Shown here: positions 2,645 to 47,796 of the stretch, in pieces
Numbering within the stretch: the stretch's first letter is position 1
Layout: the number at the start of each line of letters is the position of its first letter
Origin: Chitinophagales bacterium
GTDB lineage: Bacteria > Bacteroidota > Bacteroidia > Chitinophagales > UBA10324
Length of the DNA: 64,000 nucleotides
Direction of reading: 5' to 3'
NCBI GenBank assembly: GCA_019694975.1
Contig: JAIBAY010000004.1
Location: 378,516-442,515 of the forward strand
Notes under the pieces: model-generated
What the model was told of the DNA's origin: nothing
The model's input: the letters and a program-made list of their open reading frames with translations, nothing else
The model's database searches: none
Program-made: the position numbers and the translations under genes

Positions 2645-2812
2645 ATTGGATATTGAATATTGATTATTGAATATTGATTATTGAATATTGAATATTGATT
2701 ATTGGATATTGAATATTGAATATTCAACACCCAACACTCAACACCCAACACTCAACATTCAACACTCAACATTCAACATCCAACACTCAACACTCAATAT
2801 TCAATTTTCAAT
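2645..2812 (-). repeat. Family-1 long AT-rich hairpin repeat (TGAATAT heptads / CAACACTCAA arm), copy H1
   Basis: The left arm is (TTGAATATTGA)n and the right arm is (TCAACACYCAACA)n, centred at 2721/2722. The arm mismatches are almost all A:C on the + strand, which become G:U on the - strand. Strand here denotes the strand on which the RNA fold is best. Confidence 0.8.
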
Positions 2813-2886
2813 ACGAATAGTCGGACTTAGTTATGAATTTAATCTTACGATGCTATCATATTTTATCCCTATAAAAACCAACTTTT

Positions 2887-3261
2887 ATGAAATTTGATTT
2901 ACAGAATCGATTAGTTGACTTTACAGTCCAATGTTGTGATTTAGCTGAGTCATTGCCAAAGACAAGAACGGGAAACTATTTAGCTGATCATTTGATACGT
3001 GCGGGAATCTCTCCCTCGCTGAACTATTCAGAAGCTACCAGTGCAGAATCCGCAAATGATTTTGTGCATAAAATGAAAATTTGCATAAAAGAGCTGCGCG
3101 AAACAATGATTTGCATGGCCATAATCATAAAGAAGAAAATTCTTCCTCATCATGAATCAATAGCAAGACTGATGAAAGAAAATGACGAATTAATAGCTAT
3201 ATTTCATAAAAGCATCGACACTGCGAAATCAAATATTGAAAAGTTTGGAAAAGGAAAGTAA
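2887..3261 (+). CDS. four-helix-bundle protein (23S rRNA intervening-sequence protein / Avd-like family)
   Basis: 124-aa ORF with the family pattern (LIRAGISPSLNYSEA, FVHKMKICIKELRET). It is small and AT-rich, and is bracketed by repeat copies H1 and H2. Confidence 0.78.
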   Translation: MKFDLQNRLVDFTVQCCDLAESLPKTRTGNYLADHLIRAGISPSLNYSEATSAESANDFVHKMKICIKELRETMICMAIIIKKKILPHHESIARLMKENDELIAIFHKSIDTAKSNIEKFGKGK

Positions 3262-3304
3262 GCAGTGTTTCTTAGATGAATGTGCATCAGATGCTTTCAT
3301 TGAC

Positions 3305-3470
3305 ATTCAATCATTCATCATTGAATATTGAATATTGGATATTGAATATTGGATATTGAATATTGAATATTCAACACTCAACACTCAACATTCAACATTC
3401 AACACTCAACACTCAACACGCAACGCTAACTACTCACTTTTAACTTTTCACCACTCACCACTCACCAAAC
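3305..3470 (-). repeat. Family-1 hairpin repeat, copy H2 (with CACTCAC-rich tail)
   Basis: Same arm order as H1 (TTGAATATTGG... then CAACACTCAACA...). The tail ACTACTCAC...CACCACTCACCACTCACC is the reverse complement of the head of the copy at 47117. Confidence 0.8.
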
Positions 3471-3476
3471 CCAACC

Positions 3477-5069
3477 ATGACCGAAGCACCCGAAAACAAA
3501 ACAGATCTTGTGCTGGAACTGTCAAAACCCTGGCCTGAATTTCCACATGATATAGCAGCCACCGAACAACTGGAAAAAGCGATGTTGCCGGCATATATTC
3601 GTTCATGCCGTTGGTTTGGTGGCAAGGCAAGACGCATCACTGCCGTATGTCTCGACAGCGTGCTCACGATTACAGCTCCGGCAGCGGCCGGTGAACAGGT
3701 GTTTCACCTGATGATTGTGAAAGCCAAATACAAAACCGGTAAACTTGAGCAATACCTGCTGCCCTTGTCGATTGTTCCGGCCAGCCCTGCTGATGAAATC
3801 AATCTGAAGGGAATTATCGGCACCGTGAGGACAGATGACAAGGAGCTGCTGCTCATTGATGCCATTTATGATGAAGCCTTCAGAAAGACGTTGTTTCACC
3901 ATCTCTTTCATTCTTCCGCTATCAAACAGGCAAACGGCTCCCTTTTCTTCAAAAAAGGAAAAGCCTTCCGGGAAAGCGATTTCTCTGAAAACATTTCATC
4001 ACGCGTACTCGATGCCGATCAAAGTAATTCATCGCTGATTTTTGGTGAGAAATATTTCATGAAGATCTACCGAAAGCTTTTCAGGGAAACCAATCCTGAC
4101 GTGGAGGTAGTAAGTTTCTTAACTGAGAAAGCCGGCTATGCTCACATTCCGGCTTTTGCCGGCAGCTTCGGCTGGAAAAAGGCTTACAGCGCACCCGTCA
4201 CTTTTGGCATGATGCAGGAAAAAGTGGAAAGCATAAAAGATGTATGGTCGCTGGTGGGGGACTATCTCAATGAATATATTTTTGGCGTGGCGGATGGAAC
4301 TAAAACCGTGAATCAGTTTGTGCTTGACCATGTAGGTTTGCTTGCTACAAGAACCGCTGAGATGCATTTGGGACTCGGCTGCGACGCAAATGATCCTGCT
4401 TTTGCACCCGAACCGTTCACCGACGAATACCGCGACTGGCTGTTTGCACATTTTGAATCGCTGCTGAAACGGCGACTGCAGCTGGCAAAGGAAAATTTCA
4501 ATGCACTGGATGAAAAAGGAAAACCACTCGCTGAGCTTTTTATGCAGCAGGCCGATGCCATCCGCAACTTCTTCCTGCGCATCAAAACTCAACCGGTGCA
4601 ATCACTGCGCACCCGCATTCATGGCGATTACCATCTCGGGCAGGTATTATATAACGGAAGCGATTACATCATTCTTGATTTTGAGGGAGAGCCGGAAAGT
4701 TCCATCAGCGACCGGAAGATCAAACATACTCCTTTAAAAGACGTTGCGGGCATGCTGCGGTCATTCCATTATGCCGTGAGTGCCAAACTATATTTCAGCC
4801 CTGAAACCCAAAACATCAGTGACGAACTGATGGACGAGGCCGCGCAGCATTGGTATAAAGTTGTTTCGGAAACATATCTGCAGCATTATTTCAAAGTGAT
4901 GGAAGGTTCAGCCCTGATCAGCAGTGATAAAAGTGAGCAGGCTTTCCTGTTGCAAATGCATTTGCTCGAAAAAGCGATTTATGAATTGGGATATGAATTT
5001 AACGGAAGGCCTGCATGGGTCAAGATTCCGTTAAAGGGAATAGAACAGGTGTTGAAGGAATTGAGTTAG
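3477..5069 (+). CDS. mak: maltokinase (Mak/Pep2-like, maltose 1-phosphate forming)
   Basis: 530-aa ORF. The C-terminal APH-like kinase core carries RIHGDYHLGQVL and ILDFEGEP motifs. It lies between glgE and glgB. Confidence 0.8.
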   Translation: MTEAPENKTDLVLELSKPWPEFPHDIAATEQLEKAMLPAYIRSCRWFGGKARRITAVCLDSVLTITAPAAAGEQVFHLMIVKAKYKTGKLEQYLLPLSIVPASPADEINLKGIIGTVRTDDKELLLIDAIYDEAFRKTLFHHLFHSSAIKQANGSLFFKKGKAFRESDFSENISSRVLDADQSNSSLIFGEKYFMKIYRKLFRETNPDVEVVSFLTEKAGYAHIPAFAGSFGWKKAYSAPVTFGMMQEKVESIKDVWSLVGDYLNEYIFGVADGTKTVNQFVLDHVGLLATRTAEMHLGLGCDANDPAFAPEPFTDEYRDWLFAHFESLLKRRLQLAKENFNALDEKGKPLAELFMQQADAIRNFFLRIKTQPVQSLRTRIHGDYHLGQVLYNGSDYIILDFEGEPESSISDRKIKHTPLKDVAGMLRSFHYAVSAKLYFSPETQNISDELMDEAAQHWYKVVSETYLQHYFKVMEGSALISSDKSEQAFLLQMHLLEKAIYELGYEFNGRPAWVKIPLKGIEQVLKELS

Positions 5070-5110
5070 CGTTTGCACCATCCATAGGATGGATCCAGAC
5101 ACAGAAAAGA

Positions 5111-5190
5111 ATTGAGTGCTGAATATTGAATTTTCAATACTGGATATTGAAAATTTTGATACACTCAACACTCAATTTTTAATAACCAAT
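5111..5190. repeat. Family-1 hairpin repeat, short copy H3
   Basis: ATTGAGTGCTGAATATTGAATTTTCAATACTGGATATTGAAAATTTTGATACACTCAACACTCAAT. It has an outer stem ATTGAGTG/CACTCAAT and an inner stem GAATATTGAA/TCAATAC. Confidence 0.6.
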
Positions 5191-5368: not shown

Positions 5369-5791
5369 ATGGAAACTACTCCAAATTCTCAATCACGAAC
5401 TGAATTAGATTCTGCACGTTTTCTTAAGATGCAATCAAATCTCCATCAAGTTCTTTCTGAATTAAATGAAGGAACATGGATTCGTTTATTAAAGAATGGT
5501 GTCTGGCGCATTTTTCAACTGATCTCCTGGCTGATGTGCATTGCCATGTTGATATTTGCATTTTGGATACCAACAACATTAAATGCTATGATTTATTCAG
5601 ACCAGGATACGCAAATTTCACTTCATGCAAGCAATACGGAATTTTCAGCTATCATTTGGGCCGTCAAAGCAATTTTTATTGTCTCAGGATTAACCTTTGC
5701 TATTATAGCCGTTCTTATTGGAGGAATTGTTTCGCGAAATAATCGATTGCAATCAATCTTTGAAAGATTTAAGCAGATTGATGTGATGTAA
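5369..5791 (+). CDS. hypothetical small membrane protein (2-3 TM)
   Basis: 140-aa ORF with hydrophobic segments (ISWLMCIAMLIFAFWIP, IFIVSGLTFAIIAVLIGGIV). It is AT-rich, has no recognisable motif, and is inserted between mak and glgB. Confidence 0.5.
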   Translation: METTPNSQSRTELDSARFLKMQSNLHQVLSELNEGTWIRLLKNGVWRIFQLISWLMCIAMLIFAFWIPTTLNAMIYSDQDTQISLHASNTEFSAIIWAVKAIFIVSGLTFAIIAVLIGGIVSRNNRLQSIFERFKQIDVM

Positions 5792-5807: not shown

Positions 5808-5975
5808 CTCCGTTAGTCCGGATTTTTTTCCAATCCGGACTAACGGAGAAGAGGATTTCTAATCCTCACATATTTCACAAAGCTTCACAGCACCTCTCCG
5901 ATAGTCCGGACCTTTTTCCAATCCGGACCTGATGACAAAAGGATTTGTTAGTCCTCGCTATTTCTCGAACTTTCA
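5808..5975 (-). repeat. Family-2 mosaic repeat (terminal two-hairpin module), two tandem ~85-bp units in reverse orientation
   Basis: Unit 1 has a perfect 17-bp stem, CTCCGTTAGTCCGGATT (5808-5824) / AATCCGGACTAACGGAG (5832-5848), followed by AGGATTTCTAATCCT. Unit 2 (about 5893-5975) is a diverged copy. The reverse complement matches GGATTAAAAAATC...CCGGATTGGAAATAAATCCGGACTAAC at 30760-30818. Confidence 0.8.
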
Positions 5976-6215
5976 CAGTCCTTCCCATACTCTATAAATC
6001 TTATCTTGCCCAGGTTTAGCGAAGCATGACACGTTTCTTATTCGATAAGAAAGATCCCGCTATTCTTCATGGCAAAGCAGTATTTTTCAATGAGTAATTC
6101 CACCCCGCTGTCTCATTCTGATGAAAACAGCGGGTTAGGTATTACTTTTAGGAAAAAGTCCGTGTAATAACAGATACCATTCAAAAAAATGAAAACAGCA
6201 CAATAGCTGATAAAT

Positions 6216-8285: not shown

Positions 8286-8329
8286 GAAATCTTCGCTGTG
8301 TCTAATGATCCAGCAAGTTATGTTGAAAT

Positions 8330-9432
8330 TGAGTGTTCAATATTGAATATTCATTACTGAATATTGAAAAAATCAATACTCAATATCCAACGCCCAATAT
8401 TCAATAACCAATGTAGGTTCTTGCCCAGGGCCGGCGTCCTCGCCGAGCTAGATGCAAGCATTACTATTCAAGTAATGTAAATGATTAGCGAGGAAGCCAA
8501 CGACTGGCAACAATTGGATATTGAATATTGAATATTCATTATTGAATATTGAAAAAATCAATACTCAATATCCAACACCCAATATTCAATAATCAAGGTA
8601 GGTTCTTGCCCAAGGTCGGCGTCCTCGCCGAACAAACTGCAAGCTGTATCAGTTATGAAATGTAAATGATTAGCGAGGAAGCCAACGACTGGCAACAATT
8701 GGATATTGAATATTGAATATTCATTATTGAATATTGAAAAAATCAATACTCAATATCCAACACTCAATATTCAATAATCAATGTAGGTTCTTGCCCAAGG
8801 TCGGCGTCTTCTCTGATCTAACGGCAAGCGGTATTAGTCTTTGAATTCAAATGTTTGACTAAGAAGCCAACGACTGGCAACAATTGGATGTTGAATATTC
8901 ATTACTGAATATTGAAAAAACCAACACTCAATATCCAACACCCAATATTCAATAATCAATGTTGGCACTTGCCCAAGATCGGTGTCTTCTCTGATCTAAC
9001 GGCAAGCGGTATTAGTCTTTGAATTCAAATGTTTGACAAAGAAGCCAACGACTGGCAACAATTGAATATTGAATATTCATTATTGAATATTAAAAAAATA
9101 AATACTCAATATCCAACACCCAATATTCAATAATCAATGTTGGCACTTGCCCAAGATCGGTGTCTTCTCTGATCTAACGGCAAGCGGTATTAGTCTTTGA
9201 ATTCAAATGTTTGACAAAGAAGCCAACGACTGGCAACAATTGGATGTTGAATATTGAATATTCATTACTGAATATTGAAAAAATCAATACTCAATATTCA
9301 ACACTCAAGATTCAATAACCAATGTTGGCACTTGCCCAATGTCGGCGTCCTCGCCGAACATTGGATATTGAATATTCATTACTGAATATTGAAAAAATCA
9401 ATACTCAATATCCAACACTCAATATCCAATTT
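8330..9432. repeat. Tandem array of ~7 structured units (period ~177-186 bp, last unit ~114 bp): family-1 hairpin plus a ~110-bp multi-hairpin spacer module
   Basis: The hairpin loops GAAAAAATC recur at about 8366, 8551, 8736, 8914, 9091, 9277 and 9391. The spacer modules of units 4 and 5 are identical. Units 1-2 and units 3-5 carry different sequences that keep the same stems (TCGGCG..CGCCGA versus AGATC..GATCT). Confidence 0.85.
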
Positions 9433-9681
9433 TCTGCTTTTGAAAGAAGTCGGTGGTTAGTATTCTTTGCACATCTGCCGGCTATGGAATAGCAATATCG
9501 GGTGAGTGTGCCCGGCGAGGGCATTGATTTATTCAATCCTTTTTGTTCTTTTTTGCCGCTAACTTGATATTGCTGTATCACAAAGCATTGGGAAGCCGGA
9601 AGATGCATTTTGTAGTTTCAAATATTACAATCTGATAGTCAATCACTTATATCGGTCAGAATATTTTTTTTAAGCGCATAG

Positions 9682-9711
9682 TTGTAACTTCAGAAAATGA
9701 CTTTACCTTTG
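9682..9711 (+). promoter_or_regulatory. candidate Bacteroidota sigma-A promoter for the 23S-5S unit
   Basis: TACCTTTG (9704-9711) fits the -7 consensus TAnnTTTG. GTTG at 9681-9684 lies 19 nt upstream, in the position of the -33 TTTG element. The site is about 240 nt upstream of 23S. Confidence 0.35.
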
Positions 9712-9949: not shown

Positions 9950-12846
<2,897 letters not shown>

Positions 12847-12868
12847 TCTATTTTTTTATTTTTCTTTG

Positions 12869-12896
12869 ATTGTATTTCCGTTTTTCAATATTGTCA
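12869..12896 (+). other. 3' strand of the 23S processing stem
   Basis: Complementary to 9877-9900 (see the leader feature). This is the typical RNase III-type stem that encloses 23S. Confidence 0.55.
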
Positions 12897-12977
12897 CGAT
12901 TTATTAAGTCTGAAGTTGTCAGTCCTTGGTCGTTAGTTTTCTTTCACTAAGTGTTGCTGCTTCTCACTAAAGATTTT

Positions 12978-13087
<110 letters not shown>

Positions 13088-13092
13088 TCCTA

Positions 13093-21966: not shown

Positions 21967-22749
21967 TTATGATTGCCCGCTGAGCATGATTTCTATTCCG
22001 CCAAATGAATTCCATACATAAGAAATGGTTGCCGTGCTGCCTGGAAGAAGATTTAGCATTAGTTTATTGGAACTATAGATCAGGCCCCGCCGAAGCTGGA
22101 CTTCATATTTTCCCTGTTCGAGAGAAAATTTATAAGTCAGTTTGTTAACGAGTATTTCACCAATTTTTTTACCATTGACTAATACGTTTATGTTGCTTTC
22201 ACTCTGGAGGAAACCCGGAGCCTTGTTAAAAAAACATAGTTGTGCTTTTTGCAATGACTCATTGGGGCGCCGGCTGGGGAATTTTTGAAGATATTTGGTT
22301 AAGCCATGAACGCCATTTTTAAATGCATCAAAATCTGTGTCTAACTTGAATTGCTCTGCATTTACCAGGCTGACAAGGCTCGAAGGCAAATCCATTTTGT
22401 GTGGTTTTTGGGCTTTGTCGAGCAAGACAACCACCAATGGTATTTTCTTTTCGAGGGCTTTTTCCAGTTCCATCCGTACAGGATCATCCGCCCTGTCAAT
22501 CTTACGGGCTCTGCCTTCATTGCCGGTCGTGGCATTTAACCAATTGTGTCCGATGATGGCTAGTACAACATCTGAATTCTCCAGTTCTTTTATCATCTTT
22601 TTTTCAAAGTCCTGGCCAACCTTGATCTTTTCCGTGTCTATGAATACCTCAATCGGATACTCTGCTGTGCTTAAACGTAACAATGCTTTTTCCAATGCAT
22701 GTGATTCATGCAAACTGTCATCCCGGCGGTAACTGAGAAAGAAACGCAT
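21967..22749 (-). CDS. TIR-domain protein with PEGA-like C-terminal beta domain (TIR-A)
   Basis: 260 aa. The N-terminus is MRFFLSYRRDD, followed by VFIDTEKIKVGQDF, SDVVLAIIGHNWL and DPVRMELEKALEKKIPLVVVLLD (TIR_2 pattern with a conserved Glu). The C-terminal ~100 aa read INVLVNGKKIGEI...GKYEVQL. Confidence 0.8.
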   Translation of the reverse strand: MRFFLSYRRDDSLHESHALEKALLRLSTAEYPIEVFIDTEKIKVGQDFEKKMIKELENSDVVLAIIGHNWLNATTGNEGRARKIDRADDPVRMELEKALEKKIPLVVVLLDKAQKPHKMDLPSSLVSLVNAEQFKLDTDFDAFKNGVHGLTKYLQKFPSRRPNESLQKAQLCFFNKAPGFLQSESNINVLVNGKKIGEILVNKLTYKFSLEQGKYEVQLRRGLIYSSNKLMLNLLPGSTATISYVWNSFGGIEIMLSGQS

Positions 22750-22762
22750 ACTGTTTAAAAAT

Positions 22763-23524
22763 TTAGTTCTCTGACCTTAGTGAAAGCGTACCCCAATGCG
22801 CATTTCGATCTGCATATAAAACAGACACCTGTTGAGATCTGACTTTTATTCGGCATTCGCATTGTTTGCCAACTTTATTGCCCGGTTTGATTGCAACAAT
22901 ATGTTCTCCGGGAATAACCTTGTGTTCAAATGTTTTGTTTATCAACTGCAAGGTTCCCACTGTTTCATTATCAATCAAAATAATGGCAGGAGGATATTCT
23001 GTTTCGAGGTAGTGGCTGATGAACCCCCCTTTTTTGGTGCGAATCTGAATAGTGCCATATTCAACAGATGGGAGCCATGCACTCTCGTCTCCGGGAGACC
23101 TAAGCATTTCAACAACCTGCATTACATCTTTCTCAAAAGAAGTATTCCTGATGGTGGCGGCATGTATGGTTGCAAAGGCAGTTAATGAAGGCGGGATATC
23201 CTGCTTCCCGGGCATTCTTGCTTCATCAATCAGCAGTGGGGCAATACGGATGTGAGTGTTTTTCAGCGCAGCAGTCAATTCCCGGTTTACATAGTCGCCC
23301 GGCGCATTTAGTATCGTAGCGGATTGTTTGACCGTGCGTAGCCAGTTTTTTCCTATCACCACCAACACCACATCCATATCTCTGATTATTGAATCAATGG
23401 TTGCAGCAGTTGTCTGTGGGTTACTTTGTTTAACTTCTAATGCTGGTAAATGCTCCTGTATATACAGACGGAGTCTTCCTACAAAACCTTTGTCATCCGG
23501 ATGATAGCTTATATATAGACGCAT
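22763..23524 (-). CDS. divergent TIR-domain protein with PEGA-like C-terminal beta domain (TIR-B)
   Basis: Start taken at ATG 23524 (MRLYISYHPDD); the ORF track starts at a GTG at 23554. Motifs are MDVVLVVIGKNWL and DYVNRELTAALKNTHIRIAPLLID. The C-terminus reads AIILIDNETVGTL...GEHIVAI. It ends 13 nt upstream of the TIR-A start. Confidence 0.7.
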   Translation of the reverse strand: MRLYISYHPDDKGFVGRLRLYIQEHLPALEVKQSNPQTTAATIDSIIRDMDVVLVVIGKNWLRTVKQSATILNAPGDYVNRELTAALKNTHIRIAPLLIDEARMPGKQDIPPSLTAFATIHAATIRNTSFEKDVMQVVEMLRSPGDESAWLPSVEYGTIQIRTKKGGFISHYLETEYPPAIILIDNETVGTLQLINKTFEHKVIPGEHIVAIKPGNKVGKQCECRIKVRSQQVSVLYADRNAHWGTLSLRSEN

Positions 23525-23845
23525 ATCAAAAAAATTAAAGCCGTTGTGAGTCACTACAGCGCACTGAAAAAGGTGTTGACCAATATTCCGCCCTCTCTTT
23601 AATGCACAAATTAACGGAATAAAACTTTATGTATTTTGATAATATTAATCTTATTGCCGCAACAAACAGCTGATATAATACCAGGATTTTATGGAATAAG
23701 GCAGTGTATTATTTCACTGCAGCTTACTATGTTTTGAATAATGGTGATTGGAGTATTTTCAAAGTTTATGGGATTGGGTCAGTTGTTGGTCCGGGTTTCC
23801 ACAGGCTTCAATGAGGCCGGCAATCGTGAAAAATGCCGGGCAAGA

Positions 23846-47116: not shown

Positions 47117-47445
47117 GTGAATAGTGAGTAGTGAGTGTTGGATATTGAGTGTTGAATATTGAGTGTTGGATATTGAGTGTTAAATATTGAGTGTTAAATA
47201 TTGAGTATCGGATATTGAGTGTTGAATATTGAGCGTTGAATATTCAGTATCCTATATTGAGTGTTGAAAATTTAAAGTTCAATATTCAATATTCAATATC
47301 CAATATCCAATATCCAATATTCAATATTCAATATTCAATATCCAATATCCAATATCCAATATCCAATATCCAATATCCAATATCCAATAACCAATATTCA
47401 ATATCCAATAACCAATAATCAATATTCAATATCCAATAACCACTG
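47117..47445 (+). repeat. Family-1 giant hairpin, inverted orientation, with a (CAATATY)n microsatellite arm
   Basis: The left arm is (GAGTGTTGRATATT)n over 47130-47268, the loop is about 47269-47277, and the right arm is a run of CAATATT/CAATATC heptads reaching about 47440. Its mismatches are G:T on the + strand. Confidence 0.85.
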
Positions 47446-47796
47446 ATTATCATTTATTGAAAGGATTTCTGGCTTTGCAATAAATGAGACTATCCGTAAA
47501 CAACAATACAGTATGGTTGTTAATGCAGGATGAGAGTCGGTATGGAATCATTTTCAAGGTAAGATTGAGCCTTATGAATTTTCGGCAGTTTCCATTTTTA
47601 GAACAGGCATCATCCATTTGAATATGTTTACAGTCCGGCATATACCATCAAATTTTAAAATGCGGGCGGAACCGTTGAAGACAATGTTTGCAAACCATTT
47701 TTCACCGAGCTGTGATTTGCCGGAACTACTTTTACCCTTTCATTTTTATTTTCATGGGTTGTGCTTCGTGGTGCGGCCTGCATTTCATTGCATCAA

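Follow-up and report, generated by a model that had tools for sequence, protein, structure and literature searches.

The locus described here raises the question of why the two arms of a hairpin should differ almost exclusively by A/G transitions, so that the RNA of one strand pairs nearly throughout with the help of G:U wobbles and the RNA of the other strand is left with A:C mismatches. The locus lies in a 64-kb stretch of a Chitinophagales contig (JAIBAY010000004.1, positions 378,516 to 442,515; below, the window is this whole analyzed stretch), in which two such hairpins, H1 and H2, flank a small PF05635 gene within a glycogen/maltose operon. Comparison with related genomes and with metagenomic loci led us to the following reading, to which we assign a probability of about 0.6: H1 and H2 are the expanded heptamer arms of an S23p cassette of the intervening-sequence (IVS) type located outside rRNA, the arms evolve separately, and the asymmetry results from the fixation of units within them. 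The parts of the cassette are as follows:

Positions 2645 to 2721: left arm of H1, 11 tandem heptamers ATTGAAT/ATTGATT/ATTGGAT, TTG-type on the + strand (Tandem Repeats Finder (TRF) period 7, 11.4 copies).
Positions 2722 to 2812: right arm of H1, about 12 tandem heptamers TCAACAC/CCAACAC/TCAACAT that also show a higher-order period of 21 nt (TRF period 21, 3.9 copies).
Positions 2887 to 3261, + strand: PF05635 gene of 124 aa, encoding a 23S rRNA-intervening-sequence protein (S23p, a four-helix-bundle protein; IVP below).
Positions 3303 to 3368: left arm of H2, ATTGAAT/ATTGGAT units, the downstream arm bracketing the PF05635 gene.
Positions 3369 to 3436: right arm of H2, TCAACAC/TCAACAT units, degrading towards 3436.

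Pairing of the 34 positions on each side of the H1 centre (2721/2722) gave 23 Watson-Crick, 9 A:C, 1 G:T and 1 T:C oppositions, exactly the count of an earlier note on this sequence; over 77 positions, H1 comprises 54 Watson-Crick, 18 A:C, 2 G:T and 3 other oppositions. When both strands of each copy were folded, the strand asymmetry described in that note, and its effect on RNA folding, turned out to be real. For H1 RNA, the folding energy amounts to -36.5 kcal/mol for the + strand and -87.9 kcal/mol for the - strand, the latter fold containing 17 G:U pairs, and the respective z-scores against 200 dinucleotide shuffles are -5.9 and -15.1. With DNA parameters, the gap between the strands of H1 is much smaller than as RNA (-19.8 and -33.1). 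The corresponding RNA values are -22.4 (+) and -58.2 (-) kcal/mol for H2 (3303-3436), and -170.1 (+) and -256.5 (-) for the whole cassette. The further claim that the arm differences are almost purely transitions is correct for H1 (22 transition-type differences versus 3 other) and H2 (14 versus 0) and too strong for the window as a whole, where about 78% of the departures from TTGAATA across all TTG-frame units are transitions and the transversion variant TTGATTA is common.

The heptamer family, with units TTGAATA, TTGGATA, TTGAGTG, TTGATTA and similar, is well above chance in the window (116 matches to TTGAATATTGAATA with at most two mismatches, versus 1.2 expected), and all its copies are intergenic. 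Besides H1 and H2, they form:

Positions 5108 to 5185: H3, a small hairpin of the same unit family as H1 and H2, downstream of the maltokinase-like gene.
Positions 8323 to 9436: an array of seven heptamer hairpins of about 85 nt each, between glgB and the 23S rRNA gene.
Positions 47117 to 47442: H47, a hairpin of about 330 nt with the left arm (TGAGTGTTGAATAT)n of period 14/28/42 and the right arm (CAATATC)n of period 7 and 23 copies.

The asymmetry is weak in H3 (-22.7 (+) and -28.7 (-) kcal/mol), and all seven array copies fold better on the - strand, by 9-17 kcal/mol each. In H47, which starts one base past a stop codon, the + strand is mildly better (-124.7 versus -107.6 kcal/mol; -52.4 and -51.0 with DNA parameters). 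With the flanking genes all on the + strand, the favoured strand is the antisense one in H1, H2 and the array, and the sense one in H47, in agreement with the earlier note.

To describe the mismatches, we divided the arms into heptads of the frame xTTGxxx and compared the facing units one by one. Two heptad positions supply almost all A:C mismatches: (i) position 1, where the left arm has A and the complement of the right arm has G in 10 of the 11 H1 units and in all seven H2 units, and (ii) position 6, where A is likewise opposed to G in 7 of 11 H1 units and 4 of 7 H2 units. The facing units are ATTGAAT on one arm and GTTGAGT/GTTGAAT on the other, the units of the H1 right arm being complements of GTTGAGT, GTTGGGT and GTTGAAT. 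The higher-order periods are likewise arm-specific (14/21 in the left and 21 in the right arm of H1; 14/28/42 in the left arm of H47 and a clean 7 in the right), which shows that each arm was built by its own tandem duplications. Since the mismatches fall on fixed heptad positions of tandem arrays, one or two unit substitutions spread within one arm are sufficient to reproduce the pattern. A binomial test on the H1 mismatches (19 versus 3) would give p ~1e-3 and is invalid, because it assumes that the mismatches are independent. The conclusion drawn in the earlier note, that such a pattern implies either an RNA structure under selection or deamination confined to one arm, and not a DNA-level palindrome, thus does not hold, as the spread of unit substitutions suffices.

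Strand-specific mutation was considered in its own right. If cytosines of the - strand were deaminated when extruded or otherwise single-stranded, CACTCAA would be converted to TATTCAA in the cytosine-bearing arm only. This explanation accounts for differences that are transitions; moreover, TTGAGTG contains no C, so a strand-specific C-to-T change would be arm-specific by composition alone, and the hairpins are G+T-rich on the - strand, as is usual after deamination. We nevertheless regard it as highly improbable, and among the explanations weighed here it fits least well. The + strand is both the leading strand, judging from GC skew over the whole window, and the coding strand, and both kinds of exposure predict the opposite polarity. 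H47, located in the same replichore as H1 and H2, has the polarity opposite to theirs, in weak form. The cytosine of CAA is kept in 11 of 11 H1 units, while the adjacent position is changed in 10 of 11. The same unit variants occur in distant phyla, and the polarity flips between close relatives (see below). Replication-strand bias as such was rejected, since the GC skew has one sign across the window and H1/H2 and H47 have opposite polarity.

Close homologues of the PF05635 protein (78-87% identity) were found in the same glgE-IVP-maltokinase context in three lineages: L127, from the Chitinophagales metagenome-assembled genome (MAG) GCA_039918875.1, L128, and the group L129-L134. Across the three lineages compared, the GlgE sequences share about 85% identity. 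Heptamer arrays are present at both spacers in all of them, and both the arm lengths and the favoured strand vary (RNA folding energies in kcal/mol, + / - strand):

Window: H1 -36 / -88; H2 -22 / -58.
L127: H1 about 13 units versus about 3 units, essentially one-armed; H2 -26 / -41.
L128: H1 -37 / -40; H2 -28 / -31; near-symmetric.
L129: H1 -37 / -40; H2 -45 / -33, the sense strand being better.
L131: H1 not folded; H2 -39 / -26, the sense strand being better.

It is the left H2 arm that carries the G-type units in L129 and L131, and hence the sense strand folds better there. Even contigs with an identical IVP protein differ in single arms: exactly four units (28 nt) are missing from one H1 arm of L132, and one H2 arm of L131 shows a 24-nt difference. 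Neither the structure nor the favoured strand is therefore conserved in these orthologues, where polarity varies or flips. No counterpart of H3 was found at the corresponding position in L127, and none of H47 in the orthologous PorT-family/NDH2 spacers of three relatives (window 47117-47760 compared with L183 3842-4997, L184 3822-4988 and L185 3791-4000), so H47 as a conserved element was rejected. In two of these three relatives, a DUF817 gene of the opposite strand separates the PorT-family gene from NDH2; the third has a plain 210-nt spacer.

Searches for features of a functional RNA gave the following results. Among the seven array copies, no covariation was found on either strand (a term of ~0.09, i.e. 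about 0), and eight cells are broken on the - strand. At gathering thresholds, Rfam identified only 23S and 5S rRNA in the window; at E <= 1, it added only sub-threshold models of plant and animal microRNA precursors, i.e. generic A+U-rich hairpins. Sigma-70 and Bacteroidetes promoter scans yielded nothing above chance near H1 and H2, and the only - strand Bacteroidetes-type -7 motif is at 4728, at chance frequency. No terminator-like site was detected at H1 or H2 on either strand, the stems being A+U-rich without an adjoining T run. Taken together, the polarity flips, the indels confined to one arm, the absence of H47 from orthologous spacers and the lack of covariation, Rfam family and promoter argue against a conserved strand-specific RNA and in favour of fast, arm-by-arm repeat dynamics.

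These results bear directly on the possibility that the - strand is transcribed, that its long G:U hairpins are functional and that selection keeps the G:U pairs. Such an antisense RNA could alternatively fold into an 800-nt H2:H1 stem around anti-IVP and serve as a regulator, an RNase III substrate or a small-RNA precursor. The large energy gaps of H1, H2 and the whole cassette, the - strand z-score of H1, and the preference of seven out of seven array copies for the same strand speak for this explanation; in addition, several differences among array copies replace G:U by A:U and so keep the pair, and the arm lengths are near-equal. Yet the favoured strand varies at orthologous spacers, variants that are truncated or have a single arm persist, covariation amounts to about zero with eight - strand cells broken, no Rfam family reaches threshold, all annotated genes along about 10 kb are on the + strand, and no - strand -7 motif is near H1 or H2. 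We therefore find an antisense RNA quite unlikely.

The context of the hairpins points to a different origin. The gene between H1 and H2 matches PF05635 with E 4.7e-11 and 43.3 bits (cut-off 33.8), and its neighbours are glgE (661-2607) on one side and a maltokinase-like gene (3477-5069) on the other; the annotated genes along about 10 kb are all on the + strand. Proteins of the S23p/IVS type are very common, and the Avd protein of diversity-generating retroelements is related to them. A search for homologues of the window protein found 190, all of them PF05635 members; most sit on contigs of 1-2 kb. The gene is bracketed by the right arm of H1, which thus also acts as its upstream arm, and by the left arm of H2, with duplex energies of -34.9 on the + strand and -64.6 on the - strand. 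Pairing of H1 with H2 spans 118 nt (85 Watson-Crick, 23 A:C and 3 G:U oppositions), and the - strand allows H1 to pair with H2 over their entire lengths.

The same arrangement was observed when metagenome contigs were searched for relatives of the window PF05635 protein, which yielded 41 loci of 29-54% identity and 32-65% G+C. Arrays of period 7 (and 14) cover 3.9% of the bases within 350 nt of the PF05635 genes versus 0.38% elsewhere, an approximately 10-fold enrichment, and no arrays of periods 5, 6 or 8-11 were found near these genes in the 41 loci. The arrays are inverted, with arms of 40-49 nt that are 75-90% Watson-Crick. An upstream arm (e.g. CGAACATCGAACGTCGAAC) ends 0-40 nt 5' of the start codon, and its reverse complement begins 0-20 nt past the stop codon. 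Since the inverted arms abut the ends of the open reading frame (ORF), the ORF lies in the loop of a heptamer-built stem. L127-L132 and about 28 of 38 metagenome loci share this bracketed-ORF layout. Example cassettes, from the metagenome loci L141-L181, are L145 1330-1800, L156 2900-3415, L157 2660-3140 and L177 2910-3410. The heptamer unit is lineage-specific (CGAACGT, CAACATC, TTCTAAC, AAGTATT), and the period is always 7. In the 24 best metagenome stems, summed by hand on the sense strand, there are about 73 A:C, 81 G:U and 72 other mismatches. Because A:C and G:U are balanced, the S23p-cassette family as a whole is not strand-asymmetric; its transition/transversion ratio is ordinary, and the window is an outlier.

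The balance in these stems also counts against selection of the reverse sign, in which the sense stems are weakened by A:C mismatches to spare the glgE-IVP-mak-glgB transcript from RNase III cutting or termination, the antisense G:U pairs being only the mirror image. H1, H2 and H3 are indeed internal to an operon of co-directional genes, and their weakest folds are those of the sense strand; the IVP-bracketing duplex of the H1 right arm and the H2 left arm has -34.9 in sense and -64.6 in antisense; and H47, which follows a gene and precedes the next by 300 nt, lacks the weakening. However, in the group with the closest IVP relative (L129, 87% identity), H2 is stronger on the sense strand (-45 versus -33), L128 is symmetric at both spacers, and the sense folds in the window remain far below those of shuffled sequences (z = -5.9). 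This negative design seems to us rather improbable.

In the reading that we prefer, H1 and H2 as expanded and separately evolving arms of an IVS-type cassette, the element would be a small ORF in the loop of a stem made of inverted arrays of 7-nt units, residing in the glgE-maltokinase spacer instead of a 23S rRNA gene. A second arm would have been gained on each flank in the window, so that each flank also forms a local hairpin. Each arm would then grow, shrink and homogenise on its own, presumably by replication slippage or unequal exchange between tandem units. The TTG-type arms of the + strand would thereby have become fixed for ATTGAAT-type units and those of the - strand for GTTGAGT/GTTGAAT-type units. 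The one or two purine transitions that distinguish these unit types, multiplied about tenfold by copying, would give the observed asymmetry, A:C on the + strand and G:U on the - strand, and the asymmetry itself would probably have no function of its own. By analogy with the IVSs of rRNA, the bracketing stem is a putative RNase III-type processing site.

Three observations sit uneasily with this reading. First, the arms are near-equal in the three large hairpins (11.4/11.5, 7.4/9.4 and ~24/23 units), which independent dynamics would not predict and which suggests some selection for pairing or a coupled mechanism. Second, four of the four independent loci within 2.6-9.4 kb favour the - strand, which with n=4 is suggestive and not significant. 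Third, the TTG/CAA core is invariant and the unit variants TTGAATA and TTGAGTG recur in other phyla, pointing to a sequence constraint beyond slippage. A broader hypothesis, which we consider unlikely, would hold that S23p genes with inverted heptamer arrays constitute one widespread mobile IVS-like element that also inhabits ordinary operons of many phyla. The arms, with their period of 7 nt, would be bound by the S23p pentamer in the form of RNA or single-stranded DNA, and lopsided arms would be a functional state, either providing antisense double-stranded RNA or leaving the sense strand 'disarmed' against RNase III.

Heptamer hairpins were also examined independently of the gene. A neutral 19-mer taken at the hairpin centre (TTGAATATTGAATATTCAA) was matched exactly at 120 or more sites in genomes spanning many phyla, many of these sites being within short hairpins of TTGAATA/TTGAGTA/TTGAACA/TTGAGTG units. 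In 120 such loci, only one PF05635 ORF was found, at a distance from the match; solo hairpins without the gene thus exist, and a general linkage between heptamer hairpins and PF05635, tested from the hairpin side, was rejected. A family-wide strand asymmetry was rejected as well, the hairpins in these loci being mostly short and near-symmetric. H3, the array and H47 are solo hairpins. All hairpins of the window (H1, H2, H3, the array and H47) have the TTG arm first, whereas S23p cassettes have the CAA arm first around the gene; the solo hairpins are therefore not simple remnants of ORF deletion, and they look like junctions at which one cassette's 3' arm meets the 5' arm of the following cassette.

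Hairpins of another heptamer, GTTGACC/AGTTGAT (TTGACCA-type), were observed in Niastella and Chitinophagaceae MAGs (L072 2130-2237 and L111 6605-6686). Their unit is a complement-rotation of the cyanobacterial STRR2 unit TTGGTCA. The hairpin of L072 is strongly lopsided (13 G:T versus 2 A:C), and one-strand asymmetry thus recurs in other heptamer hairpins.

Hairpin length and perfection suggest one more explanation, at the level of DNA: perfect long palindromes are cleaved by SbcCD or deleted, and only diverged arms reach 80-170 nt. Any mismatch would serve, and transitions would dominate as the commonest unit variants. Consistent with such survivorship, the longest hairpins are the least perfect (~70% Watson-Crick in H1, H2 and H47, compared with 90-100% in shorter ones of other genomes), and folding with DNA parameters is modest on both strands. 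Still, the relation between length and identity is biased by the detection threshold, near-perfect arms of 38-48 nt exist (L078, L045 and L024), and the near-complete G:T-compatible pairing on one strand would be left unexplained; we judge this explanation very unlikely.

No transposase, RAYT (the transposase of repetitive extragenic palindromes) or reverse transcriptase was found in a Pfam scan of the 25 larger ORFs of the window, and no target-site duplication is evident at H47. Six exact matches in viral contigs are not accompanied by long hairpin arrays and give no sign of a phage vector. A literature search returned no paper on the exact repeat sequence.

The arrays also affect genome assembly. 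Six short-read contigs of the same organism (L121-L126, with identical GlgE) all stop at one identical position within the H1 left arm, and a short-read contig with the PorT-family gene (L182) ends within the left arm of H47. The organism is also represented in the sequencing runs SRR14610229-248. Heptamer arrays systematically break short-read assemblies, and these breaks affect the completeness of MAGs.

Several other features of the window were noted. Successive copies of the array are separated by a second repeated, hairpin-forming, unrelated segment of about 100 nt (8413-8510, 8597-8695, 8783-8880, 8961-9058 and 9139-9236; period ~185), which has imperfectly complementary ends (TTGCCCAAGGTCGGCGTCCTCGC ... 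GCGAGGAAGCCAACGACTGGCAA); only about 30 nt of it lie between the last two copies. The 23S and 5S rRNA genes are at 9952-13088, no 16S gene is present in the window, and the 1.1-kb hairpin array occupies the usual place of the 16S gene and spacer. The Bacteroidetes-type -7 motif TAnnTTTG at 9704-9711, 3' of the array, may be part of a candidate promoter of the unlinked 23S-5S operon. An 88-nt tandem repeat (5808-5978; 1.9 copies, 78% matches), located between a 140-aa ORF without a Pfam match (5369-5791) and glgB, includes a perfect 17-bp hairpin (5808-5848). At 21967-23554 of the - strand, two adjoining genes, each with a TIR domain (PF13676), lie amid glycoside hydrolase genes and form a possible defence locus.

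The strand asymmetry is mainly a warning: in hairpins made of tandem repeats, many identical mismatches can stem from one mutation. Given this shared descent, a transition-only or G:U-only pattern is no evidence for a structured RNA before orthologues are compared. The context is more notable than the asymmetry itself, which is of modest interest. In many unrelated metagenomic lineages, PF05635 genes are found outside rRNA and bracketed by inverted period-7 arrays, an association that links two old puzzles, the bacterial heptamer repeats and the IVS proteins. The window contains an unusually expanded, four-armed and strand-lopsided example in a glycogen/maltose operon.

Comparison with known systems places the window elements among several types of repeats. 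In engineered short hairpin RNA and inverted-repeat constructs, transitions introduced in one arm leave the RNA of one strand fully paired and turn the DNA into an imperfect palindrome that is easier to maintain. Unlike these deliberate designs, the window and its relatives show no consistent strand choice. Like the palindromes of the REP/BIME type (repetitive extragenic palindromes and bacterial interspersed mosaic elements) and those resembling miniature inverted-repeat transposable elements (MITEs), the window hairpins are dispersed, imperfect, situated between co-directional genes, lineage-specific and quickly gained or lost. In contrast to both groups, they contain no conserved unique sequence, only arrays of 7-nt units, and the scan of the larger window ORFs detected neither a RAYT nor a transposase.

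The short tandemly repeated repetitive (STRR) sequences of cyanobacteria are heptamers as well. Heptamer direct repeats (TAACTGA) have been described in Beggiatoaceae, Cyanobacteria and Bacteroidetes as intergenic, variable between relatives and assembly-breaking, the Bacteroidetes arrays having up to tens of copies of mixed related heptamers (PMC4679880). MacGregor proposed in 2015 that they are binding sites of OB-fold proteins, one protein per heptamer; a single inverted set was reported among 170 in the Beggiatoa genome, and a link to PF05635 or S23p is not mentioned (PMC4679880). Similarly to the TAACTGA and STRR arrays, the window units are 7 nt long and intergenic (TRF period 7, 10-23 copies) and differ in copy number between close relatives. 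They differ from these arrays in the unit, TTGRRTR, and in being arranged as inverted pairs that form hairpins.

The closest parallel is provided by the IVSs of 23S rRNA genes. In Coxiella burnetii, the IVS is inserted in helix 45 of 23S rRNA and carries an S23p ORF whose start is preceded by two or three tandem GACAGAT heptamers, their number depending on the strain; this IVS is excised by RNase III and viewed as selfish and horizontally acquired (PMC4990558). Several features of the window cassette differ from those of 23S IVSs: (i) the cassette (2645-3436) resides in the glgE/maltokinase-like spacer and not in the 23S gene (9952-12852), which aligns with the Rfam model over its full length and contains no IVS, (ii) its arms are far longer (7-12 units), with a second arm on each flank and two local hairpins, and (iii) the arms in the window lineage are strongly strand-asymmetric. 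At the same time, as in the 23S IVSs of the Leptospira, Coxiella, Brucella and Xanthomonas type, the S23p ORF of the window cassette lies in the loop of an inverted-repeat stem, and in the window and its relatives, as in Coxiella, the ORF is accompanied by heptamer arms of variable copy number.

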